From a virus (taxonomy: Duplodnaviria > Heunggongvirae > Uroviricota > Caudoviricetes), in IMG/VR virus record IMGVR_UViG_3300042885_000900: a stretch of DNA of 64,000 nucleotides, one strand, 5' to 3'. The notes under the pieces were generated by a model. The model ran no database searches, had not been told where the DNA came from, and saw nothing but the letters and a program-made list of their open reading frames with translations. Shown in pieces: positions 45,665-62,592 of the stretch. Each line of letters begins with the position of its first letter. Within the stretch, counting starts at the first letter, position 1. A program made the position numbers and the translations under genes.

Positions 45665-47572
45665 TTATAACACCTCTTCTTTTAATTCTAATTTTGTCTG
45701 TTTCTTATCATCAATGAATGCTTGAACTCTTTTCCGAGCAACTTCCGTATAATCCGGAGATAACTCAATTCCAATCCATCGTCTCTCTAATACTTCTGCC
45801 GCTACAGCTGATGTTCCACTTCCCATAAAGGGGTCAAGAACAATATCATCCTTATATGTAAGTATCTTAATCGCCTTCCCAGGTATATCCATTGAGAATG
45901 TGGCTTTAGTTAATGATTTAGTATCTGCAAAATATTCCCACCTTCCAAACACCAAGTTCATAAACTCTTTCTTGTCCTCATCCTTATAAACCATCTTATT
46001 TTTGATGGTTCCATCTTCCTGAATTACTTTAGTTGGTTCTCCTTCCCATTGGGATTGTCCTTTAAGTAATTTCTTACTCGTTTTCTTATAAGCCAATATG
46101 ATACACTCTTTTGGGTTATAAATATAGGGGCTCGACGCTGACATCCATGAGTTACCACACCACACTAATTGTCCTGATTTTTCAACTAATAATGTTTTAT
46201 TAGGTACTGACACACAATAAACTTTATCATCATAATCAATTGTGGTAACATTTTTTTTCTTTATATAACTTTGTTCTTTGTTGAGGATTTGAATTGTTGT
46301 CATTGGGTAATTAGATTTTATTATTTTACCATTCCAAAGTCTATCTTTCGCAAAATAACTATATAATGAACAAATTCTCCCCGATTCAAATAATAATCTA
46401 AGAATTTGGTCTTTCATTATCTCACTACATACAGAAATTTTCCACAATTCATTGTCTTTAGTAAAAGACCCATCACCATAAAATATCCATAATAATAATA
46501 TTTCTTTCTGTCTTTTAGACATATTAAAAACATAATCAGGTATTGTTCTTAAATTTTTACTTTTTGTATCAAGTAAAAACGACGCCAATTGTTTTGAACA
46601 ACAAAAATATTCGTTTTTTTGTTTTTTATATTCAAAATTAAATGGCAATCTCTCCAACAATTCTTCAATTTCTTTTAAAAATTTTATTTTTGTTTGATAA
46701 ATAGATATTTTGTATATACCTCGTTTAACATCATACGTTAATGAACCATCTGTTAGAAAAATACCTAAAAATCTCATCCAATCATCCGCATCAACAATTA
46801 CCGAATCTTCATTTCTATATATTTTTTTACTTCTTAACCCATACTCTACAGGAGGTATCACAACAGTTTTCACATCCACAACATTATTTAACCCATTATG
46901 ACTTCTAGGTATTGTGAAAACCTCTTGAGTTATCTCATTAAATGGTATAACGTCTATTTTAGAGTTGTCTACTCTAACCATATTATGGTTTTCTGTTATA
47001 GTAAGATTAACCGAACGAGTTTTAATATTTACTAATTTACCTTTAAATGGTTTTTCAATATAATCAAAAGCCTTTTGATACTCAATTTCTTTAGTTGTAG
47101 GATTTAATGTCATAAATAAATCCGTCTTAATATCAACATCCTTAAAAAATTTAAGACCATTATTTGTCATAACTTTAGTTTCATTATCATAACAACCCCA
47201 AGCAGTTTGTCTCACTCGGTGTGGTGAATCCTCAGTTAAATCAACCATCCCGTAAAATTTAAAACCAACTTCCTTCATCTTCATCCAAAATTCAGCGTTG
47301 AATAATATTCTACCTCCTCTTTCTTGAACATTCACTTCTATTGGAACATTGATGGCGATTCTTCCGTCATCCTTTAACACTCTATACGCTTCAGTTAACC
47401 ATTTTGTCGTAAAATCCCAATACTCATCCATTGGAATACTATCATTATACACATCGTATTTGATGTTAACAGAATATGGTGGACTAGTCACCACTAAATC
47501 CACACAACCTTCAGGAAATGTTCCCATAACCTCAACACACTCACCATTTATAATCTTCCCTGTCTCTATCAT
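45665..47572 (-). CDS. Orphan DNA methyltransferase (N6-adenine/N4-cytosine beta class) interrupted by a 348-aa intein carrying a LAGLIDADG endonuclease
   Basis: Extein motifs are DLVVTSPPY (motif IV) and DPFMGSGTS (motif I). The intein starts at CYDNETKVMT and ends at VWCGN followed by S. LAGLIDADG blocks are LGIFLTDGS and LLWIFYGDGS. Confidence 0.75.
   Translation of the reverse strand: MIETGKIINGECVEVMGTFPEGCVDLVVTSPPYSVNIKYDVYNDSIPMDEYWDFTTKWLTEAYRVLKDDGRIAINVPIEVNVQERGGRILFNAEFWMKMKEVGFKFYGMVDLTEDSPHRVRQTAWGCYDNETKVMTNNGLKFFKDVDIKTDLFMTLNPTTKEIEYQKAFDYIEKPFKGKLVNIKTRSVNLTITENHNMVRVDNSKIDVIPFNEITQEVFTIPRSHNGLNNVVDVKTVVIPPVEYGLRSKKIYRNEDSVIVDADDWMRFLGIFLTDGSLTYDVKRGIYKISIYQTKIKFLKEIEELLERLPFNFEYKKQKNEYFCCSKQLASFLLDTKSKNLRTIPDYVFNMSKRQKEILLLWIFYGDGSFTKDNELWKISVCSEIMKDQILRLLFESGRICSLYSYFAKDRLWNGKIIKSNYPMTTIQILNKEQSYIKKKNVTTIDYDDKVYCVSVPNKTLLVEKSGQLVWCGNSWMSASSPYIYNPKECIILAYKKTSKKLLKGQSQWEGEPTKVIQEDGTIKNKMVYKDEDKKEFMNLVFGRWEYFADTKSLTKATFSMDIPGKAIKILTYKDDIVLDPFMGSGTSAVAAEVLERRWIGIELSPDYTEVARKRVQAFIDDKKQTKLELKEEVL
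46151..47194 (-). mobile_element. Intein (Hint domain plus LAGLIDADG homing endonuclease) inside the methyltransferase gene
   Basis: Cys at +1, N-terminal splice junction after ...RQTAWG, C-terminal Asn then Ser. I mapped the boundaries myself by translating both junctions. Confidence 0.65.
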
Positions 47573-49486: not shown

Positions 49487-50845
49487 TTAATTAATCCTCA
49501 TAATATTATAACTATCATCGTTAATATAAACATTGTCGTAATTACCATTGTAACCATTCATCATGCCCCAACCATCTTCATCCACTAATCCTTGAGCTAA
49601 AGCGTCTTTATCAACATACTCTGATATATCTAACCCAAAATCAGACATATAACTTTTAATGTTATATCTAACCTCATCTAACATTGAATCAACCTTATTA
49701 TCAATCATTTCTTGGGATGGTTCCATATCAACCTCAATATTATCTAATTCTTCTTGAAGATATTCTATATGGTCTTGTGTTTGTTCGTATTCTGTTGAGT
49801 CCGAATCATCCATATTTCTTAATCTTTCTTCATATTCCTCAATTTCAGATTCAAGTTGTTCTTTCCTTTCTTCTTGTTCTGAGGTTAACTCAAAATCATC
49901 ATCACTAAAATATATATCCGGTTCATTAGCTATATCATTTTCATAATAATCTCTAAAATAATCAAGAACCTCATCTTCGTTAATATAATAATCAATAAAA
50001 CCACTTCTAAATCCATCAACACCTATATCATCAATTAAATCTTTTGCATATTCTAAAGCCGAACTATCCATCTCATCATCAGAACCAACGGTATATTCTT
50101 GGTCTTTAAATCCAGGTGATAACACCTCAAATTGTGTTAAATCATGATAACCATAACCATAAGGATACAAATCATAAACATCAATTTTATTATCAGTTAA
50201 TTCAGTTATCTCTTCTTCAATTTCTTCAATGGTATTTAATATTTCAACATTTTCATCGGGGTCACCATCTCTTTCTTCATCATCATAAAGAGACTCAAGG
50301 TCTTCTTTCTTTTTTGTTAAAACTTTTAATTTTTCTTCATCATCTTCATCTAAAGTTTCAACCTCACCACTATCAACTAAATATTTTAATAACGCTTGAG
50401 CCTTTAACCCTAACTCATCACCTTTTTCAATACTCCAATCATCACCATCTCTATATTGATTCATTGTTTGTTTCTTATTGTTCAATTCCTCTATTTCTCG
50501 TTTTTTTTGTATAGGTGAACCATAATCACTAATATAACCTGTAATCTCCATTTTAGGTAATTTAGATACATTAGTATAACTAATATTTAAATTACCATCA
50601 ATACGACCAATATTACCCAACGAATTTGTTGGAGTATTTGAAAGGTCTAAAGTTCCTGTTATCCATAATGGCTTTCCCATAAATTTCTTAAGACTCGTTA
50701 TTGAGCTCCCATTGTAACTGGTTAAAACCATTAAGTCAACATATTGTTTAGGTGTCATTTTATAATAATCGTCTTCAACTTGTTCAACAATTGTTTTAAT
50801 AAAACGATATAACTCTTTTTCCGTAAGTCTAATTTTTCTACTCAT
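49487..50845 (-). CDS. Large, highly acidic, probably helical protein, 452 aa. Scaffold-like composition.
   Basis: ORF track. Long Asp/Glu-rich stretches. Confidence 0.6.
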   Translation of the reverse strand: MSRKIRLTEKELYRFIKTIVEQVEDDYYKMTPKQYVDLMVLTSYNGSSITSLKKFMGKPLWITGTLDLSNTPTNSLGNIGRIDGNLNISYTNVSKLPKMEITGYISDYGSPIQKKREIEELNNKKQTMNQYRDGDDWSIEKGDELGLKAQALLKYLVDSGEVETLDEDDEEKLKVLTKKKEDLESLYDDEERDGDPDENVEILNTIEEIEEEITELTDNKIDVYDLYPYGYGYHDLTQFEVLSPGFKDQEYTVGSDDEMDSSALEYAKDLIDDIGVDGFRSGFIDYYINEDEVLDYFRDYYENDIANEPDIYFSDDDFELTSEQEERKEQLESEIEEYEERLRNMDDSDSTEYEQTQDHIEYLQEELDNIEVDMEPSQEMIDNKVDSMLDEVRYNIKSYMSDFGLDISEYVDKDALAQGLVDEDGWGMMNGYNGNYDNVYINDDSYNIMRIN

Positions 50846-51182: not shown

Positions 51183-52007
51183 ATGAAATATATTAACGAA
51201 AAATCAAATAGAGGTATTGTGAATTTATTCTCCGATTACCTATTAAAAGAATTAACTAAAGAAAATAATATTGATGCAGTTATAGAAGTAACCGATTGTG
51301 GTAAATTTTTTATCGTTAACGGATTAACTAATTCAAATAAGATATTAGATATGACTAAATTAAAATCTTCTTTCTTGGAAGAATATAAAGAACTATTATC
51401 TGAATTTGGTTATACACAAATAAATATTATTGATGTTATTAGTTATGGTCACGAATTAGTTAAGAAATCTGAATACACTTATGAGTTTTATGATTCAGTT
51501 AGACCAATATATTCACAATCAATCATTGATTATGTCTCTAATGATACTCAAGGATTAAAATATCATTCTATCTCTGATATTAATGGTTTAAACCTTGAAT
51601 TAGATTATTCTGAAGAGAATACTAAAGATTTAACAACTTTTAATTATTCACCTTTAAACATCACATCCGAATTCCCACACGGATATAGTTTAGATATGGG
51701 TAGATTAGAATTTTATTATTCAGAATATATCACCAATCATTTATTTTGTCATTCAATCACCGATAAAATACAATTCAAATATTCTAACATTAAAAATAAT
51801 GATGACGATTACATGATTAATATTAATACAACATCTGTCCATAATAATGAATCTATCGTTTCAATGGTATTAGATGTGTTTGATTTTGATATGTTGAAAT
51901 TTAAATCTACAATAAAATCATATGATATAATAGAAGACTTAACAAAACCTTTCGATAAAAAACCTTGGTTAATAAAAGACCGTATAAAAGATTTGGTTAT
52001 ATTTTAA
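51183..52007 (+). CDS. Hypothetical protein, 274 aa
   Basis: ORF track. Confidence 0.6.
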   Translation: MKYINEKSNRGIVNLFSDYLLKELTKENNIDAVIEVTDCGKFFIVNGLTNSNKILDMTKLKSSFLEEYKELLSEFGYTQINIIDVISYGHELVKKSEYTYEFYDSVRPIYSQSIIDYVSNDTQGLKYHSISDINGLNLELDYSEENTKDLTTFNYSPLNITSEFPHGYSLDMGRLEFYYSEYITNHLFCHSITDKIQFKYSNIKNNDDDYMININTTSVHNNESIVSMVLDVFDFDMLKFKSTIKSYDIIEDLTKPFDKKPWLIKDRIKDLVIF

Positions 52008-52011
52008 CTAA

Positions 52012-54279
52012 TTAGGGAATACAGGTGTTTGATTTTACGAAGGTACCTGTAGATAAAGTATATGTAAAAAATCCAACACAATCAGTACCTGAACACGTAG
52101 CATTCGATATTAATATTGTAGAATCAGCAAATGTATAAGTCGTCCCTATTTGTGTACCTCCGGAAGTTATAAAACCATAATTACCATCACTAATCATTGT
52201 TCCACCAGAATAAGCTTTCATTTGTATTTGAACAATGCCCGTACCTGTATTTGGAGTGTTTCTATACCAATTCGCTCGACAATTTAACTGTATTGAGGTA
52301 ACACTTCCACTAAGTTTTAATTGTTTAATATCTACATACACACTTTCGGAACCACCCGTATTTTGATTATCACCACCCCACCATAAATTAGGACCAACAC
52401 GTTTACCTGACGCCAGATTTCCAGTAGTACAAAACCCAACTGGGTTAAAAGTATTCGCATATGTTGTCCCCGTCACATTATTCACATATAAATAAGTAAG
52501 AGTGTCTAAATCTTTCCCACTAGTAATTGGGAATGTATATGTAAAAACAAGATAATCAGCATTAAGTATTATCGGAGCCTTTGTTGGCGTAACCGTTGGC
52601 GTATATGTTGGTGTAGGTGTTTGAGTTGGTGTTTTAGTCGGTGTAAGCGTTTGTGTTGGTGTTTGTGATGGTGGGAGCACATCTTTAATTAAACGAACTG
52701 AAAAACCAACTGTTTTATTAGTATTAATTCTACTAACACTTTGACTACTATTACTCATCTGACGACTCCACGAACTAACAGTATTAGCCGATGATGAAGT
52801 CCACCAATACCCACCATTACGAATGTCAGTAAATACCCCGCTAATACTTCTATTACCTCCTGGAAGAGCAGTAAAACCATAAGTGTTAACAGCACCCGTA
52901 TTTGGAGTGTTCCAATATGTGGTACCAGTTCCTTTCAATATTCCCCCTGATACCGATTCACCACCTAAAAAAGTTGTTAAAGTAGTCCATTCAGCATCTG
53001 TAGGAATATGATAACCTAACGGAGCTAATCCACCATTTGCGGTATTATTAACCGCATACCAATTATATAACATACCATAAGTATTTCCTGTTGTTGTACT
53101 ACCGCTGTAATAACACCAAGCCCCCGTGGTTAATCCTGACCAAATAGCCGGGTCAGTCACTTTTGGAATTACAGTACCATCTCTATAAGTAGGAACATTT
53201 AAATTACACGCCGTCCAAGTTTGAGTTCCAATTGTCACATCATTTAATGAACAAAGATATGGTGAGGGTGCATTTAAATTAGTCGTTAAACAACTAGGAA
53301 CTTGAGACGCACCAGCAATTGTTTTATTAATTTCTGTAACATATACTAAATTGTATGGCGAATTTTTATTAATTATATATAATTTTGTATTTATACCATC
53401 AAGATTAACCGATGTTATGTAAATATTTCCATTCGACTCAAAAATACCATAAGTATTACAAGGAATTGTTAGAACAACATCAACTTCTAAAGTCCCTGTT
53501 AAATAATTCCACTGACTTAAATAACAAATCTCATTAACAGGGTCATTATTAAGTACCAAAAATTTATTAGTTGTTGTTTTATAAAAATCACCAGTAATAG
53601 TTCTACCAGCCGTTAAAGGAAATTTAGTTGTCATAACAGGACTTACACCTGATACATCTATTTCAACAACTTCGTTAGGATTATTGAGTGTATTTACCGC
53701 TAAAATAACTGTGTCCGAAATCGCCGCAAGACCCGCAGAATTACTAAAATTTAATGGAGAGGGGATATTACGATTAAATATCGCACTAAATGATGGTAAA
53801 GTTATATTATATTCGTTAAAACTAATACCAGTTGGTTCCCAAAGTTTATTTGAGGTATGAGCAATATCATTACCTCCAGAATATTCCGCCGGCATTGTTA
53901 ATAATGTTGAAGTGTTTGCAGAAACATTATAATAATAAACTTTATCTTGATTATCATTATATAGTACAGCACAAGTCGGTACAACAGGATTACTCGTTGG
54001 TGTTGGTGTTTTTGTCGGTGTTATACTTGGCGTTGGAGTTTGAGTTTTAGTGATTGTTGGTGTTGGTGTTTGAGTTGGTGTAACTGTTGGAGTTAATGTT
54101 TTTGTTGGTGTAACTGTTGGAGTTTGCGATGGCGATGCATTTGGTGTTTGAGTTGGTGTTGGGGTACCGATTGGTAATAAAACACCATTAATTCTAATGG
54201 TGTTTGGTATAGGATTATTGTTGGCTTTTTTCATAGAAGCCAATAATACATTATCAAATTTTTTAAGTAATTGTGCCAT
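52012..54279 (-). CDS. Fibre/receptor-binding-like protein with two Pro/Thr linkers, a beta-rich middle region shared with 59423..61882, and an internal Fibrobacter succinogenes major paralogous (FISUMP) domain
   Basis: PT linkers (TPTQTPTPTITKTQTPTPS...). FISUMP motifs GMLYNWYA, GYHIPTDAEWTTL, GFTALPGG, GFSVRLIKD. Confidence 0.75.
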   Translation of the reverse strand: MAQLLKKFDNVLLASMKKANNNPIPNTIRINGVLLPIGTPTPTQTPNASPSQTPTVTPTKTLTPTVTPTQTPTPTITKTQTPTPSITPTKTPTPTSNPVVPTCAVLYNDNQDKVYYYNVSANTSTLLTMPAEYSGGNDIAHTSNKLWEPTGISFNEYNITLPSFSAIFNRNIPSPLNFSNSAGLAAISDTVILAVNTLNNPNEVVEIDVSGVSPVMTTKFPLTAGRTITGDFYKTTTNKFLVLNNDPVNEICYLSQWNYLTGTLEVDVVLTIPCNTYGIFESNGNIYITSVNLDGINTKLYIINKNSPYNLVYVTEINKTIAGASQVPSCLTTNLNAPSPYLCSLNDVTIGTQTWTACNLNVPTYRDGTVIPKVTDPAIWSGLTTGAWCYYSGSTTTGNTYGMLYNWYAVNNTANGGLAPLGYHIPTDAEWTTLTTFLGGESVSGGILKGTGTTYWNTPNTGAVNTYGFTALPGGNRSISGVFTDIRNGGYWWTSSSANTVSSWSRQMSNSSQSVSRINTNKTVGFSVRLIKDVLPPSQTPTQTLTPTKTPTQTPTPTYTPTVTPTKAPIILNADYLVFTYTFPITSGKDLDTLTYLYVNNVTGTTYANTFNPVGFCTTGNLASGKRVGPNLWWGGDNQNTGGSESVYVDIKQLKLSGSVTSIQLNCRANWYRNTPNTGTGIVQIQMKAYSGGTMISDGNYGFITSGGTQIGTTYTFADSTILISNATCSGTDCVGFFTYTLSTGTFVKSNTCIP

Positions 54280-54290
54280 TTTATTTAGAT

Positions 54291-57200
54291 TTACAGTACC
54301 TCAACCCAACTATTATCCGGACAGAAATATATTATGTCGTTTGTTGCGTCAGTACAATAACCAATGATTCTAACATTATTACCAGTAGCCGGTGGTGATG
54401 TCGAACTAAACTCACCCGCAGTTGTTGATACATATAATATAGAACCTAAAGTCACACTAGTAAATGATGTTGTACTAAATTTAGCATAACCTCTTAACAA
54501 CATTCCACTCGCAATTGTTGTCCCTAACGCCATACCTAATAATCCTGTTGACCCAGAAACTGTTGTAGCATTTGCCAATGTCCAAGTACCTCCAGTACTA
54601 TAATAATAAACTGACCCGGCAGTTAATGTTGCTCCAATACCAAAATAAACAACTTCTCCGGCACCACCATTAGATGTTGGAACTGTAAATATTTTATTGT
54701 TTGTAATATTAATATTATTGACAAATGTTGTACACCCTCTATCTGCAGTAATGTTAGAACCTACAATAGTTGCAAAAGTAATACCTGATGGTATTCGATT
54801 ACTACTACCACCAAGAATTGACGAAAAACAACTTCCTATACAGTTATTATAACCACCCGCAATAGTTGACCAATTACCATATATACGATTCGACACTCCA
54901 CCTGCAATAGTTGAATAACTTCCCACAATTTTTTGAAATTCAGGATTACCATTAACATAAGTAAATCCACCACCACCAATTGTTGAACAATTTCCACTAA
55001 CAGAAACATAACATCCACCACCAATGGTTGAAGCATTACCGGAAACCCTATTAAAACGACCTCCACTAACTGTTGAATAAGTAGCACCTAATAAAATCTC
55101 ATTACCACAACCACCACCAATAAATGAATCATTCCCTCTAGCGGTATTACCTTGACCACCCCCGATTGTCGCAAAACTTCCAGAAGCAGTATTACTATAA
55201 CCATACCACCCACCACACTGGAAGCGTTGACCACCCCCTCCAATAGTTGAAGCCATCCCTGACGCTTTGTTATAACCACCTCCACCAATTGTTGAGGTAC
55301 TACCGGAAGCAATGTTTCCACCACCACCACCTACTGTTGAAACATAATTAGACACTGTGTTGATTCTACCTCCACCAATGGTTGAATAGTTACCCGTCGC
55401 ACAGTTTTTACATCCACCACCAATTGTTGAATTTACACCATAAGCAGTATTTCCAACACCACCACCAATAAATGAATTACTTCCACCAAAACTAGATTTT
55501 GTTAGATTTCTAACTAATGGTTGATTTCCAATTGCAAACACATCAACCGAAGCTGTTGCTCCGGTAACATTTACTGTGGTGAATCCTGCGGAGTAAGTTG
55601 ATGCCGTTACCACAACATTTCTTGAACAAGTATTATTATCAAAAGTTAATAATAAATCATTAGTTACAAAACAACTAGTTAAATTACCAGTAAACCTTAA
55701 CGAACAATTACCAAGGACTGTAGATGTTTCTATTTTTGGAGAATTACCCACCATATTTAAAACACCTCCGTTAATACCTCCTTGATACCCACAGACAATA
55801 TTCACATGACCACCACCTACAAAAGCAAATTTGGTAGCCGATTTATTATTATTACCTGAAACTATCCCTGAACCATAACCTGTTGCGTAATTACCACAAC
55901 CACCTAAAATAGCCGCTCTAATACCATTGGTCTTATTAGAAAGACCACCACCAATAACAGCATCTTCATGAACTGTTATATTATTACATCTACCACCACC
56001 TATAAACGATGCCGCACTTGTATTACAATTGTAAGAACCTCCAACAACAACTGATTGATTTGAAGACACTGTATTACTAAGTCCACCTCCGAGAAATCCA
56101 CCACCTGAACCACAACTAAGAATCTTACCACAATATCCACCGGCAATTGTTGTTGCAACACCATAGTTTCTATTACAATTTCCTCCACCAACTACAGAAC
56201 AGTTACTTCCTGAACTTACACAATTATTTTTCCCACCACCAATTGTTGAATAAGTACCAATAGCATTATTACATCGACCCCCACTAACTGTTGAAATAAA
56301 ACCAAAAGCAGTATTTGTAAAACCACCACCAATGAATGAACGATTACCAGAAGCAGTATTACCTTGACCACCACCAATAAACGATTGTTCACTTATATTA
56401 CAATTGTATTGACCTCCAACAATAACTGAACTATATGAAGATACTGTATTACAATAACCACCACCTATAAACCCACCTACTCCATTACAATTAAGTATAC
56501 TATTAGTATTACCACCGGCGATAGTTGATGAGTGACCATAATTTTTATTTTGGTATCCACCACCAACAACAGAATATTCTTTTTTTATACAGTTTAATTT
56601 ACCTCCACCGATAAATGAATTGTTATTATTATCAATAATGTTGGAACAACCACCACCTATGGTTCCATAAGATGTAGTGACACCACTTATTATATTACAT
56701 TTACCACCACTGATGGTTGAACTACAATGGTATTGACCAAAAATTTTATTAGAAAGACCACCACCAATAACTGAATTTTGTATTTGACGACCATATATAG
56801 TATTTGATAACCCACCACCTATAGTATTGTCATATAAATAACCATTATTACCACTATTAGATAGACCCATTTTGTTTAAATGACCACCACTTATAGTATT
56901 ACGACCACCTATATACAAAATATTAGACAACATTGTATTATCACTACCACCACCAATAAAAGATTCACAATTTGAACTTATAGTATTCGAACAACCACCG
57001 CCAATAAATGAACGACTAGCACCTGATAAAATATTATTACAACCACCCACGATTGTTCCATGAGGAGATAAAATATCTACTATATTAAGTTGACCACCTA
57101 AAGATGCTGAACAATTTCCATTTGATTGATTACTAACACCACATCTAACCGATGAGTATGTACCTACACCTAATACGATTACCGGAGGTGTTGGGCTAAA

Positions 57201-59081
57201 ACCACTCGTTCCTGATGAACCTGCCGCACCTGTTGCTCCCGATGTTCCTGACGAACCACTAGTACCTGATGTACCTCTTGTTCCTGAAGAACCACTAGTT
57301 CCTGAAGAACCACTTGTTCCTGAAGAACCACTTGTTCCGGATGTACCTCTTGTTCCCGATGTACCACTAGAACCATTTGCACCCGATGTTCCACTAGAAC
57401 CTGTTGCTCCCGATGTTCCTGACGAACCACTAGTACCTGATGTACCTCTTGTTCCTGACGAACCACTTGTTCCGGATGTACCTCTTGTTCCCGATGTACC
57501 ACTAGAACCATTTGCACCCGATGTTCCACTAGAACCATTTGCACCCGATGTTCCACTAGAACCCGTCGCTCCCGATGTTCCTGACGAACCACTTGTTCCG
57601 GATGTACCTCTTGTTCCTGAAGAACCACTTGTTCCGGATGTACCTCTTGTTCCCGATGTACCACTAGAACCATTTGCTCCCGATGTTCCACTAGAACCCG
57701 TCGCTCCCGATGTTCCTGATGAACCACTTGTTCCCGAAGAACCACTAACCCCACTAGCACCAGATGTCCCTGACGAACCACTAGTACCTGAAGTACCTCT
57801 CGTTCCTGAAGTTCCACTAGAACCACTAACACCACTAGTCCCCGAAGACCCACTATTTCCACTAGTACCTGAAGTTCCTCTCGTTCCTGAAGTCCCACTA
57901 GAACCACTAATACCACTTGTTCCTGAAGAACCACTACCACCAGTGCTTCCGGATGTTGTAACCAATAAACCATTAGAACCCACACACACCAAACATCCTG
58001 ATGAACTAGTGAAACTACATACAGATAAATCATTAACAAATGTGGTACATGCTCTGTTTGCGGTTATATTACTACCAATAATATTGGTATGTGTAAATGA
58101 GGAAGATATTGTATTACCTATACCACCTAATATTGATGAACAATTACCATTTGCACAATTACAACAACCTCCACCAATTACAGAATAACAACTGGTTATA
58201 GTATTTAGATAACCACCACCAATTGATGAATAAGATGCACTAATACAAAGTTTATTACCATAACCACCCGATATAGTTCCTAGTCCAGATAAAACACGAT
58301 TAGAATAACCACCACCAATGAATGACCTAGTACCTGAAACTATATTATCATGACCTCCGCCAATAAATGAGGAAGATACTAACTCACAAATTATATTAGA
58401 TAAACCACCACCAATTGATGAGGTAGTTCCTGATACGCGATTACTAAAACCACCACCAATAAATGAAAAACATTCTGATACGGTATTTCCACTACCTCCT
58501 AATGCTGCCGAAAAATTTCCTGATGCGGTATTTCCAACACCACATCTAACAGATGAGTTAATACCACCACCTAATATTATTACCGGAGGATTAGGACTTG
58601 TTCCACTAGTACCAGCCGAACCCGTTATACCTGAAGACCCCGATGAACCATTAATTCCACTAGTACCTGAAGAACCACCGGCACCTGATGTCCCCGATGT
58701 CCCTGATGTCCCACTATTACCCGATGTTCCTGATGTTCCCGATGTCCCACTATCACCTGATGAACCACTAGGTCCTGAAGTACCATTAACACCTGAAGTA
58801 CCATTAGCACCTGAAGTACCATTAGCACCAGATGTTCCCGATGTACCATTAATAAAACCTGTTATTGTAACTATACCACCCGTTGAGTCGTATAGTTCCA
58901 ATGTTGTTGCAGCAGAGAAATAAGTTCCTCCTGTAATATATGGGAATATATTTAATACTTGACCTATTTCGGCCTTATATGATGACCCTTGAGGACTTTG
59001 CGTCGTATCATAAGGTTTAACAATATGTATTAAGTCATTAACAGTTACGCCAGTCGCTAAAAGTCTATCGGTTAATCTCAT
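54291..59081 (-). CDS. Giant fibre-like protein, 1596 aa. It has collagen-like G-X-Y tracts, long beta-helix-like IGGGxxN repeats (about 14-aa period) and a C-terminal globular domain.
   Basis: GTSGTSGSSGTRGTSG... tracts, and more than 50 copies of S(F/I)IGGG(x)xN. Confidence 0.8.
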   Translation of the reverse strand: MRLTDRLLATGVTVNDLIHIVKPYDTTQSPQGSSYKAEIGQVLNIFPYITGGTYFSAATTLELYDSTGGIVTITGFINGTSGTSGANGTSGANGTSGVNGTSGPSGSSGDSGTSGTSGTSGNSGTSGTSGTSGAGGSSGTSGINGSSGSSGITGSAGTSGTSPNPPVIILGGGINSSVRCGVGNTASGNFSAALGGSGNTVSECFSFIGGGFSNRVSGTTSSIGGGLSNIICELVSSSFIGGGHDNIVSGTRSFIGGGYSNRVLSGLGTISGGYGNKLCISASYSSIGGGYLNTITSCYSVIGGGCCNCANGNCSSILGGIGNTISSSFTHTNIIGSNITANRACTTFVNDLSVCSFTSSSGCLVCVGSNGLLVTTSGSTGGSGSSGTSGISGSSGTSGTRGTSGTSGNSGSSGTSGVSGSSGTSGTRGTSGTSGSSGTSGASGVSGSSGTSGSSGTSGATGSSGTSGANGSSGTSGTRGTSGTSGSSGTRGTSGTSGSSGTSGATGSSGTSGANGSSGTSGANGSSGTSGTRGTSGTSGSSGTRGTSGTSGSSGTSGATGSSGTSGANGSSGTSGTRGTSGTSGSSGTSGSSGTSGSSGTRGTSGTSGSSGTSGATGAAGSSGTSGFSPTPPVIVLGVGTYSSVRCGVSNQSNGNCSASLGGQLNIVDILSPHGTIVGGCNNILSGASRSFIGGGCSNTISSNCESFIGGGSDNTMLSNILYIGGRNTISGGHLNKMGLSNSGNNGYLYDNTIGGGLSNTIYGRQIQNSVIGGGLSNKIFGQYHCSSTISGGKCNIISGVTTSYGTIGGGCSNIIDNNNNSFIGGGKLNCIKKEYSVVGGGYQNKNYGHSSTIAGGNTNSILNCNGVGGFIGGGYCNTVSSYSSVIVGGQYNCNISEQSFIGGGQGNTASGNRSFIGGGFTNTAFGFISTVSGGRCNNAIGTYSTIGGGKNNCVSSGSNCSVVGGGNCNRNYGVATTIAGGYCGKILSCGSGGGFLGGGLSNTVSSNQSVVVGGSYNCNTSAASFIGGGRCNNITVHEDAVIGGGLSNKTNGIRAAILGGCGNYATGYGSGIVSGNNNKSATKFAFVGGGHVNIVCGYQGGINGGVLNMVGNSPKIETSTVLGNCSLRFTGNLTSCFVTNDLLLTFDNNTCSRNVVVTASTYSAGFTTVNVTGATASVDVFAIGNQPLVRNLTKSSFGGSNSFIGGGVGNTAYGVNSTIGGGCKNCATGNYSTIGGGRINTVSNYVSTVGGGGGNIASGSTSTIGGGGYNKASGMASTIGGGGQRFQCGGWYGYSNTASGSFATIGGGQGNTARGNDSFIGGGCGNEILLGATYSTVSGGRFNRVSGNASTIGGGCYVSVSGNCSTIGGGGFTYVNGNPEFQKIVGSYSTIAGGVSNRIYGNWSTIAGGYNNCIGSCFSSILGGSSNRIPSGITFATIVGSNITADRGCTTFVNNINITNNKIFTVPTSNGGAGEVVYFGIGATLTAGSVYYYSTGGTWTLANATTVSGSTGLLGMALGTTIASGMLLRGYAKFSTTSFTSVTLGSILYVSTTAGEFSSTSPPATGNNVRIIGYCTDATNDIIYFCPDNSWVEVL
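57180..57960 (-). repeat. Collagen-like G-X-Y (GTSGSSGTRG...) coding tandem repeats, about 230 residues
   Basis: Near-perfect 18- and 27-nt tandem repeats are visible in the DNA. A second shorter tract lies at 58600-58862. Confidence 0.7.
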
Positions 59082-59113
59082 TTTTTAAATAATATTTATA
59101 TGTGATAAATAGT

Positions 59114-59419
59114 TTAATTTTGGAAATCGTACAAGATATTATCCATAAATTCAAAATCTACCAAATCTTGGAATTCCTTACCGGATACAGTAACAACACA
59201 AGAATAGATTTTAAACTCCTCACAACCATCTGAAGTAATTAATTTAATACCCAATGAAGGAGCATTATCAAATTGCGGTGGTAAAAATATATTTACATAC
59301 GGAGAAGGAGGTACGTTAATGATTGACACCAAAATGCATTGGTTTCCGTATATATCACAAGCATAAACTGTGTATGGAGGATTTAACCCTGATACTGAAT
59401 ATATCGCAACTGCTTTCAT
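59114..59419 (-). CDS. Hypothetical small protein. Possibly a fibre accessory or chaperone, judged only from its position.
   Basis: ORF track. Confidence 0.4.
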   Translation of the reverse strand: MKAVAIYSVSGLNPPYTVYACDIYGNQCILVSIINVPPSPYVNIFLPPQFDNAPSLGIKLITSDGCEEFKIYSCVVTVSGKEFQDLVDFEFMDNILYDFQN

Positions 59420-59422
59420 CTA

Positions 59423-61882
59423 TTAATCTTTTATTAATCTTACTGAGAAACCATATATTTTATTGTAACCATATCTATTAGCAACACTGGTATTAGCAGC
59501 CAAATATAGAAGCCAAGCAAAATCACTATCAACTTCTGTTGAACTCCAAAACCCACCATTGTTTCTAATATTATTAAATCCTCCAAAGTTTGAACGCCAA
59601 CCTCCAGGTAATCCTGTAAAACCGCTAGAGTTAGAGGCTCCTGTATTGGGACTTAACCAGTGTACTGTACCTGTTTCTTTTAATTTACCACCCGCAACAC
59701 TATTTCCACCTAAATAAGTGGTTAAAGTTGTCCATTCTGTATCAGTTGGAATGTGATATCCTGATGGTGCCAATTGTTTTCTTTGACCTACATCAGTTTT
59801 TGAGGCCTCATTCCAAATTCCCATCACAGCATACCAATTATATAACTTACCATATGTGTCTCCCGTTGTTGTACTACCGCTGTAATAACACCAAGCACCT
59901 GTTGTTAATGTCGCCCACTGGCTTGTTCCTGTGATTTGTGGAATTAATGTACCATCTCTATAAGTAGGAACATTTAAATTACACGCCGCCCAAGTTTGAG
60001 TTCCAATTGTTACATCATTCAATGAACAAAGATATGATGAGGAAACATTTAAATTAGTTAATAAACAACTAGGTATTTGAGACGCTCCTGAAATAACTTT
60101 TGAAACACTATTAACAGATGTTATATTATATGGATAATTTTTACCAATCATATATAGATTTGTGGTTATACCATCAAGGTTAACCGATGTTATATAGATA
60201 TTACCACTATCCTCGAAAATACCATATGTCGCACAACTATTATTCGGTAATAATAATTCAACATCAACTTCTAAAGTTCCTGTTAAATAATTCCATTGAC
60301 TTAAATAACATTTATCAGTAAAAGCATCAGTATTAAGTACCAAAAATTTATAAGCGAGTGTTCTATAAAAATCTCCAGTGATATATCTACCAACTATTAA
60401 AGGAAATTTAGTTGTCATAACAGGACTTACACCTGATATATCTATTTCAACAACTTCGTTAGGGCTATTAAAAGTATTTACCGCTAAAATAACTGTGTCC
60501 GAAATCGCCGCAAGACCCGCAGAATTACTAAAATTTAATGGAGAGGGGATATTACGATTAAATATCGCACTAAATGATGGTAAAGTTATATTATATTCGT
60601 TAAAACTAAGACCAATTGGTTCCCAAAGTTTATTTGAGGTATGAGCAATATCATTACCACCAGAATATTCTGCAGGCATTGTTAATAATGTTGAAGTATT
60701 TGTCGAAACATTATATGACCAAACTTTATCTTGATTATCATTATATATTACAGCACAAGTCGCTATAACAGGACAAGATTCAATATCAGTAAAATTAATT
60801 ATTGAATCAATAACTCCCAAAGTGGTATGAACAACATATCTACCAGGATATGTATATCCAGGTGTTGGTCCTAAATCAGTATCTAAAATAAATTTAGTCG
60901 TTCCAAGATATATCGTGTTATTAAAATTATATAATTGAACCCCAATACCAATATTTACAAATGTTTTAAAATTAAAACCATTTGGGTCACCATTTAAATT
61001 CACATAATAACTTTCCCATAAACATTTAGCCTCGTAATCCGTTGTTGAATTATTAATATTATGGGTTGTCTCATTTTGAGTAACAGATGTTGAAAAATAA
61101 GTATATATCGATGGTGTTGCCGGTTTTGTTGATGAAGGTGTCATTGTCATTGTTGGAGTCATCGTCATTGTTGGAGTTATTGTAGGTGTTTGAGTTGGAG
61201 TTTGGGAAGGTGACGCACCAGGTGTTGAGGTCATAGTAGGTGTTATAGTAGGTGTAGGTGTCATGGTAGGAGTTTGAGTTGGCGTTGGAGTTTTAGATAC
61301 TTCGGCAGGGTCAGTTAAAGTACATACCGTTATTGCCGTATAATCAAGCCAAAAATCTGTTGTTGTTGCCGTATATAACCCGGCAGGTAAATTCTGAATT
61401 GCCGGTGATATACTACCTTTATTATCTACACCCCCATTCCACCATACAGTTTTATACGGTGGTGTACCACCACTTATTGTAACCGACGCCTTACCATCAA
61501 TAGCTCCAGGGTATGATGGGTCTCTTGTATCATTTGGATTACAAGCAACCCCCATTGGGAAAATGGTTATTACATTACATTCATTTGATAGAGTATATGC
61601 TGTTATTACTGGTGATGGCGGAGGAAAACAACTAACGGAGTCATCACTACCAATACAAGTAACACAATCATCATAGTTTGTTAATATCGCATCACTTCCA
61701 TTATATATTTTTGAATTACTTGGGATAGGTTCATCAATCACATATCCACAAGCACTAAATTCAGGTGTTATTATAGAATAAACCTGATTAAGATTAGGTG
61801 TATCACCAACATAATTACTTAACCCAAAATAATTATCTGAATTATTAGATTTAGTACAACAAGTTTGAAAATAATAAGTCAT
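59423..61882 (-). CDS. Fibre/receptor-binding-like protein with a PT linker and a C-terminal FISUMP domain. Its C-terminal 445 aa are paralogous to the middle of 52012..54279.
   Basis: GKLYNWYA ... GYHIPTDTEWTTL ... GFTGLPGG ... GFSVRLIKD. Confidence 0.75.
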   Translation of the reverse strand: MTYYFQTCCTKSNNSDNYFGLSNYVGDTPNLNQVYSIITPEFSACGYVIDEPIPSNSKIYNGSDAILTNYDDCVTCIGSDDSVSCFPPPSPVITAYTLSNECNVITIFPMGVACNPNDTRDPSYPGAIDGKASVTISGGTPPYKTVWWNGGVDNKGSISPAIQNLPAGLYTATTTDFWLDYTAITVCTLTDPAEVSKTPTPTQTPTMTPTPTITPTMTSTPGASPSQTPTQTPTITPTMTMTPTMTMTPSSTKPATPSIYTYFSTSVTQNETTHNINNSTTDYEAKCLWESYYVNLNGDPNGFNFKTFVNIGIGVQLYNFNNTIYLGTTKFILDTDLGPTPGYTYPGRYVVHTTLGVIDSIINFTDIESCPVIATCAVIYNDNQDKVWSYNVSTNTSTLLTMPAEYSGGNDIAHTSNKLWEPIGLSFNEYNITLPSFSAIFNRNIPSPLNFSNSAGLAAISDTVILAVNTFNSPNEVVEIDISGVSPVMTTKFPLIVGRYITGDFYRTLAYKFLVLNTDAFTDKCYLSQWNYLTGTLEVDVELLLPNNSCATYGIFEDSGNIYITSVNLDGITTNLYMIGKNYPYNITSVNSVSKVISGASQIPSCLLTNLNVSSSYLCSLNDVTIGTQTWAACNLNVPTYRDGTLIPQITGTSQWATLTTGAWCYYSGSTTTGDTYGKLYNWYAVMGIWNEASKTDVGQRKQLAPSGYHIPTDTEWTTLTTYLGGNSVAGGKLKETGTVHWLSPNTGASNSSGFTGLPGGWRSNFGGFNNIRNNGGFWSSTEVDSDFAWLLYLAANTSVANRYGYNKIYGFSVRLIKD

Positions 61883-61991
61883 TGTCTCTTTATATATAAA
61901 TAATCGTTTATTTGATTTTTAAATAAAAAGATACAAACAATTTTATTTTTATAAATGGGACAAAAAAAATCCCCAATCAAGGGGATTATAT

Positions 61992-62276
61992 TTATTTTCC
62001 AAAATGTTCTTTGATTATTGCAATTCCTTCATCAATTTCATTGTAATCTCTTTCGGGAGCAAATAATAAACTATTCGGTTTAACATCCGGAGATTCAACA
62101 ATCATAAATGCGGGAACAAAATCATTTTCTGTTATCTCCACAAACATATCGTATTCGTCCTTATGTTCATTAATATCTCTTTCAACAAAGAATATGTCGG
62201 ACTCAACTAGTTTGTCCTTCATTTGGGTACAAAAAGGACACCCTTCCATTGTGAAAAGAATTAATAACTTATCCAT
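61992..62276 (-). CDS. Glutaredoxin-like protein
   Basis: KLLILFTMEGCPFC gives a beta strand followed by a CPFC active site. Confidence 0.6.
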   Translation of the reverse strand: MDKLLILFTMEGCPFCTQMKDKLVESDIFFVERDINEHKDEYDMFVEITENDFVPAFMIVESPDVKPNSLLFAPERDYNEIDEGIAIIKEHFGK

Positions 62277-62592
62277 TTAGTAAGTTATCAACTAATTCTT
62301 TTATTTGGGATTCCATTTGCATTCCTGGTTGAGAATAAACTTCTTTACCTTCTGAAAATGATTTTACAGTGGGTATTGCTCTAATACCTAAAGAAGAAGC
62401 GAATTCTTGATTTTTATCGACATCCATTGTATATAGTTGAACCTCGGAATTTTGATTTCTATATTCTTCTGAAAGTTTTTCAAAGGCAGGTTTCATTACG
62501 CGGCAGGGTTGGCACCAAGTGCCCCAAAAGTCCACGATTAATTTATCACCATTCTCAATTTTTTGTTTTAATTCTTCTGTTGTAATTTCCAT
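62269..62592 (-). CDS. Thioredoxin
   Basis: WGTWCQPCR active site, about 107 aa. Confidence 0.75.
   Translation of the reverse strand: MEITTEELKQKIENGDKLIVDFWGTWCQPCRVMKPAFEKLSEEYRNQNSEVQLYTMDVDKNQEFASSLGIRAIPTVKSFSEGKEVYSQPGMQMESQIKELVDNLLNG

Follow-up and report, generated by a model that had tools for sequence, protein, structure and literature searches.

A modular gene cluster in an uncultured jumbo phage, read as a likely host-adsorption fibre locus

Four adjacent open reading frames (ORFs) on the minus strand of the viral record IMGVR_UViG_3300042885_000900 encode three very large, modular proteins and a small one: what do these proteins do for the virus, and to which host may they attach it? 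The record was analysed over 64,000 nucleotides, indicated here as the window; the ORFs are named after the length of their products in amino acids (aa). As judged from the comparisons reported below, they are likely to encode the host-adsorption (receptor-binding) fibres of an uncultured jumbo phage, which most likely infects a member of the Bacteroidota. A preliminary description, made from the sequence alone, had given the coordinates of the four ORFs and the lengths of the three large ones exactly, and had proposed a mosaic tail-fibre or receptor-binding locus, with a role in host range; this proposal is supported by the homologies of two tip domains and by the comparison of conserved anchors and swapped cargo. 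The four genes are:

59423..61882, minus strand: P819 (819 aa), with anchor C, a possible SprB-like repeat, a Pro/Thr (PT) linker, a mid domain, a five-bladed beta-propeller and a FISUMP domain (ORF, Pfam FISUMP match, module map)
59114..59419, minus strand: P101 (101 aa), a free-standing anchor B, without distal cargo (ORF, comparison with related contigs)
54291..59081, minus strand: P1596 (1596 aa), with anchor D, collagen, beta-roll 1, collagen, beta-roll 2, insert, beta-roll 3 and tip (ORF, Pfam, repeats)
52012..54279, minus strand: P755 (755 aa), with anchor A, PT linker, beta-propeller, FISUMP, PT linker and beta-sandwich tip (ORF, Pfam, module map)

The ORFs are not chance frames: in DNA of about 31% GC, a composition-only estimate for the stop-free frames of P755, P1596 and P819 gives log10 P values of about -27, -56 and -29, respectively. 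The genes are separated by 3 nt (P819/P101), 32 nt (P101/P1596) and 11 nt (P1596/P755); being co-oriented and closely packed, they are proposed, from their arrangement, to form one transcription unit. A convergent gene terminates 4 nt past P755, while the upstream limit of the predicted operon may be set by the following element, whose role as a terminator is putative:

61968..61987, minus strand: terminator-like GC hairpin with a T-run, between the glutaredoxin gene and P819 (consensus scan, sequence reading)

The connection to phage tails comes from the C-terminal domains of P1596 and P755. The tip of P1596 and the C-terminus of gp047 from the Flavobacterium phage vB_FspM_immuto (vB_FspM_immuto_2-6A, NC_055915; Immutovirus, a 160-kb myovirus) share 49% identity over about 126 aa (E 4e-36); gp047 is a 578-aa protein annotated as a tail fibre. 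The annotation is itself bioinformatic; the gene sits among tail-fibre-like, structural, sheath, tube, baseplate-hub and tape-measure genes. The match was hidden by compositional adjustment, when the full-length P1596 was compared to gp047 by BLASTP, and was recovered from the C-terminal segments alone. In both fibres the shared tip lies at the extreme C-terminus; outside it, no significant BLASTP similarity to P1596 is found in gp047, collagen and beta-roll regions included, and the two genomes are otherwise unrelated at the DNA level. The tip looks like a horizontally exchanged module. It is also present, with 86-91% identity, on 7 IMG/VR contigs of 98-322 kb.

The tip of P755 belongs to the family phrog_24956 (PHROG E 4e-15), with 306 relatives, where the domain is mostly C-terminal. 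Its structural model has a pLDDT (predicted local distance difference test) of 95.0 and finds structural matches in Caudovirales; the beta-sandwich may be of the TerD-like, Ca-binding type. The same family recurs in gp62 of crAssphage (Carjivirus communis), a "putative tail protein" encoded beside other tail proteins, a BACON-domain protein, a tail needle and a collar fibre. Identity between gp62 and the P755 tip is about 30% over part of the domain, which gp62 carries near its N-terminal half and away from the C-terminus. The P755-type tip is also carried by four contigs of about 90-98 kb (L013, L015, L016, L017), binned as Clostridia or "bacterium" metagenome-assembled genomes (MAGs); their pattern of matches is the same as that of the crAssphage gp62 region, which suggests contigs of crAss-like phages wrongly assigned to bacterial genomes (the gp62-like protein on L015 matches phrog_24956 with E 9e-20).

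A conserved anchor followed by a variable tip is the classic layout of receptor-binding fibres, and it is the layout found when the locus is compared to its relatives. In three related contigs (L001, L002, L003) the flanking genes are 77-100% identical at the aa level and the N-terminal anchors 72-95%, while the distal cargo is exchanged, deleted or replaced. Residues 1-195 of P819 are 86% identical in the related protein L1_600 and 72% in L3_474, despite different downstream cargo; residues 1-43 of P1596 are 79% identical to L2_368, whose C-terminal 325 aa are unrelated. Anchor A of P755, of about 36 aa, heads four other proteins (L2_965, P0039, P0040, P0042), with different downstream modules in each. 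P101 is 87% identical in L001, while in L003 its first 73 aa are 79% identical and are followed by a PT linker; elsewhere the P101 domain is N-terminal and fused to further modules, a propeller in P0007 and the beta-sandwich tip in both P0047 (E 2e-12 with P101) and P0049. On these alignments, P101 is a bare anchor domain belonging to the fibre system: it could be either a blank plug for an attachment site, or the remnant of a truncated fibre gene. When the modules of the window are mapped onto all retrieved proteins, the following architectures are observed ("pt" stands for PT linker):

Anchor A (P755 type): A-pt-tip; A-pt-propeller-FISUMP; A-pt-FISUMP-pt-propeller-FISUMP-pt-tip; A-FISUMP-pt-FISUMP-pt-propeller-pt-tip
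Anchor B (P101 type): B alone; B-pt; B-pt-tip; B-propeller
Anchor C (P819 type): C-pt-mid-FISUMP; C-pt-other
Anchor D (P1596 type): D-collagen...; D-other

The break-points between modules fall at PT linkers and collagen tracts.

P1596, the largest of the four proteins, is composed of the following segments, all encoded on the minus strand:

58851..59081, minus strand: residues 1-77, N-terminal anchor D (95% identical to L1_2459 1-77)
58596..58847, minus strand: residues 79-162, collagen-like tract 1, 28 G-X-Y triplets (Pfam, repeat count)
58026..58595, minus strand: residues 163-352, beta-roll block 1, with cap motif IIGSNITANRACTTFVNDL (repeat analysis)
57195..57950, minus strand: residues 378-629, collagen-like tract 2, 84 triplets (Pfam, repeat count)
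55728..57194, minus strand: residues 630-1118, beta-roll block 2, about 30 repeats of 15-18 aa (repeat analysis)
55497..55727, minus strand: residues 1119-1195, non-repetitive insert between beta-roll blocks, without Pfam match (conserved in L1_2459 and L2_2463)
54711..55496, minus strand: residues 1196-1457, beta-roll block 3, with cap motif IVGSNITADRGCTTFVNNI (aligns to the UspA1 head)
54294..54710, minus strand: residues 1458-1596, C-terminal tip domain (homology to immuto gp047)

The collagen-like G-X-Y tracts, already recognized in the preliminary description, match PF01391 with 127.2 bits, the Pfam cut-off being 27.2. Both are uninterrupted, consist mainly of GTS and GSS triplets and are almost devoid of proline. 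Collagen-like phage tail fibres (phrog_5073, 6320, 366, 1806) and Bacillus BclA likewise contain long, unbroken, Thr-rich G-X-Y tracts; the likeness is compositional, and differs for the near absence of proline and for a length that varies between assemblies. The PHROG matches of the collagen region are mostly to tail fibres, by low-complexity similarity. Tract lengths, and with them the 1596-aa total, are to be taken as approximate, as they vary between otherwise identical metagenome assemblies: L005 (12802-17241) encodes a P1596 of 1479 aa, with in-frame losses of 2 and 37 triplets inside the collagen tracts (residues 482-592 are missing) and 0 substitutions elsewhere; L007 and L008 likewise differ from the window chiefly in the collagen tracts. 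These differences are either a real polymorphism or a collapse of repeats in short-read assembly.

The three remaining large blocks of P1596 contain 42 occurrences of the motif [IVLF][GSA]GG, with consensus S-T-I-G-G-G-x-x-N-x-x-x-G-x-x. The repeat had been described as about 14 aa long; its modal period is 15 aa (45 nt). The beta-helix or beta-roll shaft, which had been suggested on this basis, is here refined to a left-handed beta-roll of the UspA1/YadA head type, according to the match of these blocks with the Moraxella UspA1 head (3pr7_A, phmmer E 4.6e-20). Residues 1199-1284 align, repeat by repeat, with chain residues 11-96 of this YadA-like structure (PDB 3PR7; 86 residues, E 6e-14), both sharing a repeat of about 15 aa, STIGGGxxNxAxGxY; the Pfam models YadA_head and UspA1_rep stay below threshold, the latter with E 0.021. 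Two of the three blocks, 1 and 3, end in a conserved cap, I[IV]GSN[IV]TA[ND]RxCTTFVN. Unlike the heads of trimeric autotransporter adhesins (TAAs), the beta-rolls of P1596 are interleaved with collagen and closed by this cap motif of their own; unlike TAAs as a whole, the protein features neither a signal peptide, nor a coiled-coil stalk, nor a C-terminal YadA_anchor barrel, which was not found at E <= 0.01 in the full protein or at E <= 1 in the C-terminal segment. P1596 as a TAA was ruled out for the lack of signal peptide and barrel: only the head fold is reused.

P1596 is the only protein of the locus to carry trimer-forming shaft motifs. As collagen helices and adhesin heads of the UspA1/YadA type are obligate trimers, P1596 is predicted to be a homotrimeric long fibre. 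If fully structured, its collagen tracts would measure about 24 and 72 nm and its beta-rolls about 30 nm in total, for a fibre of more than 100 nm, using standard rises of 0.286 nm per residue for collagen and of roughly 0.48 nm per turn for the beta-roll. The protein also contains 49 cysteines (3.1%), many of them at fixed positions of the beta-roll repeat. As to precedents, YadA-domain structural proteins were found by liquid chromatography-mass spectrometry in cyanophage virions (PMC9146016) and YadA-type domains are present in pelagiphage tail fibres (PMC3909814).

P819 and P755 feature a different organization, where distinct domains are joined by PT linkers:

61589..61882, minus strand: P819 residues 1-98, Cys-rich N-terminal anchor C (conservation with L1_600 and L3_474)
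61298..61588, minus strand: P819 residues 99-195, possible SprB-repeat-like Ig-type domain with GGTPPY motif (sub-threshold Pfam SprB)
61121..61297, minus strand: P819 residues 196-254, PT linker (composition/repeats)
60773..61120, minus strand: P819 residues 255-370, mid domain (65% identical to L1_600 278-394; no Pfam match)
60038..60772, minus strand: P819 residues 371-615, five-bladed beta-propeller, paralogue of the P755 propeller (phmmer E 2e-125)
59429..60013, minus strand: P819 residues 624-818, FISUMP (Fib_succ_major, C-type-lectin-fold class) at the extreme C-terminus (PF09603, E 1.1e-38)
54172..54279, minus strand: P755 residues 1-36, anchor A, MAQLLKKFDNVLLASMKK...RINGVLL (recurs in the four proteins named above)
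53989..54171, minus strand: P755 residues 37-97, PT linker 1, PT-rich to about 104 (composition/repeats)
53260..53988, minus strand: P755 residues 98-340, five-bladed beta-propeller of an uncharacterised family (structure model)
52684..53238, minus strand: P755 residues 348-532, FISUMP lectin-fold domain, internal (PF09603, E 3.2e-38)
52582..52680, minus strand: P755 residues 534-566, PT linker 2 (composition/repeats)
52015..52581, minus strand: P755 residues 567-755, C-terminal beta-sandwich tip, phrog_24956 family, 189 aa (model, PHROG)

The two FISUMP domains match PF09603 over its entire length (1-187 of 187) with 132.3 bits in P755 and 133.8 in P819, against a cut-off of 33.9, while the SprB match (PF13573) at P819 129-150, with 18.2 bits and E 0.002, is under the 28-bit cut-off and is suggestive only. 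In both proteins FISUMP is preceded by a domain of about 240 aa without Pfam match, and the two form a duplicated module: residues 96-533 of P755 and 369-819 of P819 are 71% identical, and the DNA repeats are 78-89% identical in blocks. The additional domain is confidently modelled (pLDDT 94.7) and its best structural matches are five-bladed propellers; olfactomedin and GH43 are named in its connection. IMG/VR contigs of 12-322 kb carry propeller sequences at 31 loci, some contigs featuring two copies; a tblastn search against isolated phages gave no match.

Several modules of these proteins had been anticipated by the preliminary description: FISUMP is found in both, as said, and PT-rich linkers are located in P755 (about 37-104 and 534-566) and P819 (196-254). 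The presence of lectin-like domains at the C-termini holds for P819, whereas in P755 FISUMP is internal and P1596 ends in a different tip. Structure prediction and comparison with related phages, both proposed there as checks, yielded the two confident models and the swapping of distal modules, with flanks and anchors kept, in L001, L002 and L003.

From their module composition, P755 and P819 are best described as multi-domain adhesins, with folds strung on flexible PT linkers. Propellers, FISUMP lectin folds and beta-sandwiches are folds that typically bind carbohydrate; since all the folds are of this type, P819 and P755 are predicted, by analogy, probably to provide multivalent, reversible binding to glycans of the host surface. 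C-lectin-fold domains have precedent in phage tropism proteins (PMC8143477), and the FISUMP/DUF1566 "CLec2" proteins, including those of the Bacteroides uniformis Bacuni siphophages, likewise feature a full-length, high-scoring PF09603 domain at the C-terminus or close to it, in phage proteins with an implied role in tropism (PMC8143477, PMC5758913). Here, unlike in those, two genes each contain a copy of FISUMP, joined to a propeller. The receptor-binding protein Gp45 of Staphylococcus phage phi11 (PDB 5EFV) is also listed among the closest known systems.

Taken as an adsorption apparatus, the locus may work as follows. Each protein would begin with a short, lineage-conserved anchor (types A-D), and each anchor would dock at a separate virion site, most likely one of the tail or baseplate. 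P1596 would form a trimeric long fibre, where two collagen helices alternate with three beta-rolls and lead to the tip shared with the Flavobacterium myophage fibre, while P819 and P755 would act as the flexible, glycan-binding strings. Recombination at the repetitive DNA of PT linkers and collagen tracts would drive the evolution of host range, with distal modules swapping while anchors and flanks stay fixed. A stricter version, extended to a widespread lineage of 100-320 kb Bacteroidota phages, is conceivable, although doubtful: a four-socket, plug-and-play adsorption system, where each of the anchors A-D has its virion site, any glycan-binding module of a common pool (a new five-bladed propeller family, the FISUMP lectin fold, a new TerD-like beta-sandwich) can be fused to any of them via PT linkers, P101 is a blank plug, and reach is tuned by expansion and contraction of the collagen, with no contribution of point mutation or of diversity-generating retroelements (DGRs).

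A number of observations weigh against an adsorption role at the tail. The location of the proteins in the virion is suggested by the homology of two tip domains and by the anchor/cargo pattern. Of these homologies, the crAssphage one includes tblastn matches that are individually weak (E 7e-4 to 8e-3), backed by phrog_24956 PHROG matches with E 1e-20 to 1e-24. For the anchors, no homologue was detected among isolated phages; in tblastn searches against these, anchor D and beta-roll block 2 gave no match, although the BLAST low-complexity filter may mask repeats. No tail or baseplate gene is recognisable in the window, or within about 10 kb past either end, where the genes are accessory ones and ORFans: the locus is flanked by ORFans and by thioredoxin and glutaredoxin genes, and further out by DnaJ, Dam and a leucine-rich-repeat (LRR) protein. 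Jumbo phages commonly have scattered structural genes. As to tail morphology, a scan of viral contigs with the immuto sheath gave only immuto-like contigs, none of this lineage.

Such observations leave room for a serious alternative, which is nevertheless considerably less probable than tail fibres: the proteins may be virion components decorating the head, as fibres, or the tail sheath, as "hairs", and mediating a loose, reversible adhesion to cells, mucus or polysaccharide, rather than committed receptor binding. Jumbo phages of Flavobacteriaceae do carry head fibres, as reported for the Tenacibaculum phages PTm1 and PTm5 (PMC7824862), and sheath hairs are also known (PMC7824862, PMC13282480). 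The distance of the locus from tail and baseplate genes would fit this alternative, as would the structure of P755 and P819, whose linker-joined, lectin-type modules lack a trimerisation motif, an unusual condition for classical tail fibres. The homologues of both terminal domains, however, lie within tail modules, those of immuto gp047 and crAssphage gp62, and tail fibres prevail, despite the low complexity, among the PHROG matches of the collagen region: both argue for receptor-binding tail fibres.

Much less probable is that the proteins are not in the virion at all, and act as phage-encoded adhesins on the infected or lysogenised cell, altering host adhesion or excluding other phages. The Eib trimeric autotransporters, carried by prophages, are a parallel for such adhesins, and head repeats of the UspA1/YadA type are best known from bacterial surface adhesins. 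Bacterial FISUMP proteins, moreover, are usually lipoproteins (PMC5758913). Yet none of the four N-termini features a signal peptide or a lipobox, which for P755 and P819 fits a virion protein assembled in the cytoplasm; Pfam scans of the full proteins found neither a YadA_anchor barrel nor a type-9 Por_Secre_tail domain; and conserved N-termini with variable C-termini, along with homology to tail-fibre tips, fit virion fibres.

The FISUMP domains could also be DGR targets, with host range tuned by mutagenic retrohoming, a hypothesis with very little in its favour here. FISUMP/DUF1566 is indeed a recognised class of DGR targets, including those of Bacteroides uniformis phages and freshwater MAGs (PMC5758913, PMC8143477, PMC11661182), and FISUMP in P819 occupies the extreme C-terminus, as DGR variable regions do. 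Unlike for the Bacuni targets, however, no template repeat and no reverse transcriptase were found in the window: neither FISUMP coding region has a third copy, and beyond the locus the five longest ORFs (315-530 aa) are without Pfam match, none being a recognisable reverse transcriptase. The sequence is invariant across metagenomes: at least 14 contigs encode an identical P819 protein (six of the places belong to six different samples, and samples carrying it include JGI 3300037519, 3300009169, 3300027721, 3300042465 and 3300042898, and ENA ERZ27271740), and single-nucleotide polymorphisms between near-identical contigs gather in the collagen tracts, not in FISUMP. DGR diversification was accordingly rejected for this window of a genome larger than 200 kb.

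Finally, an origin from a eukaryotic giant virus with collagen-like capsid fibrils, or from an adhesin region of a bacterial chromosome, might be suggested by the 31% GC, the many ORFans, the collagen-like genes recalling Mimivirus fibrils and the tip-domain relatives in Pedobacter and Chitinophaga genomes, but is scarcely credible and was rejected on gene content, as the window contains bacteriophage-type genes (Acb1, DUF3310, a peptidoglycan-binding domain, PHROG families) in small, mostly co-oriented ORFs with 89% coding density, lacks tRNA genes and, among the listed Pfam families of its ORFs, cellular housekeeping genes, and has relatives on catalogued viral contigs of 12-322 kb, along with tip domains homologous to tail proteins of isolated phages.

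That the window is phage DNA is thus indicated by its relatives on viral contigs, with relatives of the locus on IMG/VR contigs of 208 and 322 kb, and by phage-type accessory genes, which include, from Pfam and PHROG matches, also the anti-CBASS function of Acb1, a tRNA nucleotidyltransferase, NUDIX and thioredoxin. A megablast search of 24 kb against 50,697 phage records gave no match. The assignment of the fibre locus to a phage of Bacteroidota is circumstantial, and several clues concur. Homologues of the terminal domains are found in the Flavobacterium phage, in crAssphage and in the Pedobacter and Chitinophaga genomes, the latter identified by scanning a genome collection with a 12-sequence alignment; FISUMP is a characteristic domain of the bacteria of the Fibrobacteres/Chlorobi/Bacteroidota group, as well as of Bacteroides phages (PMC11661182, PMC8143477). 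Across the window (94 ORFs), a Shine-Dalgarno core of at least 4 nt is present in none of 93 gene upstream regions, versus 7.6% of random positions, and positions -10 to -14 are A-rich; both features fit translation initiation of the Bacteroidota type. A sigma-70 promoter scan, showing no excess over shuffled sequence, is uninformative, as expected if the host is a member of this group.

The surroundings of the locus deserve a few further observations. GC content is 35-40% across 52001-60000, against 26-32% in the flanks; the increase is explained by the demand for Gly, Pro, Thr and Ser codons and is no sign of foreign origin. Thioredoxin and glutaredoxin genes (61992-62592, minus strand) lie directly upstream of the fibre operon in every related contig (L001, L003, L005-L010), and a link between them and the folding of a disulfide-rich fibre is speculative. 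A neighbouring 452-aa protein (49487-50845, minus strand), without family match, is very acidic (26% Asp+Glu) and 77% identical in L003. A 635-aa N6/N4 DNA methyltransferase (45665-47572, minus strand) shows methylase matches at both ends and appears to be split by an intein-like insert with LAGLIDADG homing-endonuclease motifs, where LAGLIDADG_3 scores above threshold and Intein_splicing below. Just past the right end of the window, L005 and L006 (552-6873) encode an Hc1 (chlamydial histone-like) protein, a full DnaJ, an LRR protein of 459 aa and a Dam-type methylase beside a LAGLIDADG-like ORF. The 89 ORFs outside the locus also include ferritin/rubrerythrin, nitroreductase, cysteine-dioxygenase-like, non-specific endonuclease and SPFH/Band-7 genes, and a GT2 glycosyltransferase, for which the Thr/Ser-rich fibres would be a conceivable substrate.

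The range of bacteria open to attack by a phage is set by its fibre loci, and the one described here belongs to a lineage of very large, uncultured phages, repeatedly encountered and probably preying on Bacteroidota. Every class of parts (collagen, YadA-type beta-roll, C-lectin fold, propeller) is already known from phage adsorption proteins, and the combination of anchor and tip follows a textbook logic. New are the alternation of collagen with UspA1-type beta-rolls in one protein of 1.5-2.5 thousand residues; the presence of FISUMP lectin folds in a jumbo phage, against a survey that covered 224 genomes of jumbo phages and reported no FGS-type C-lectin domains (PMC7824862); and an unusually clear combinatorial pattern of four anchors. 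Two uncharacterised domain families with confidently predicted folds are also described, the propeller and the phrog_24956 beta-sandwich, the latter being found also in crAssphage tail proteins. The locus is a clear example of an ordinary kind of host recognition, which extends, and does not overturn, existing knowledge; its four conserved anchors, swappable cargo and linker break-points could guide host prediction and the engineering of receptor-binding proteins.

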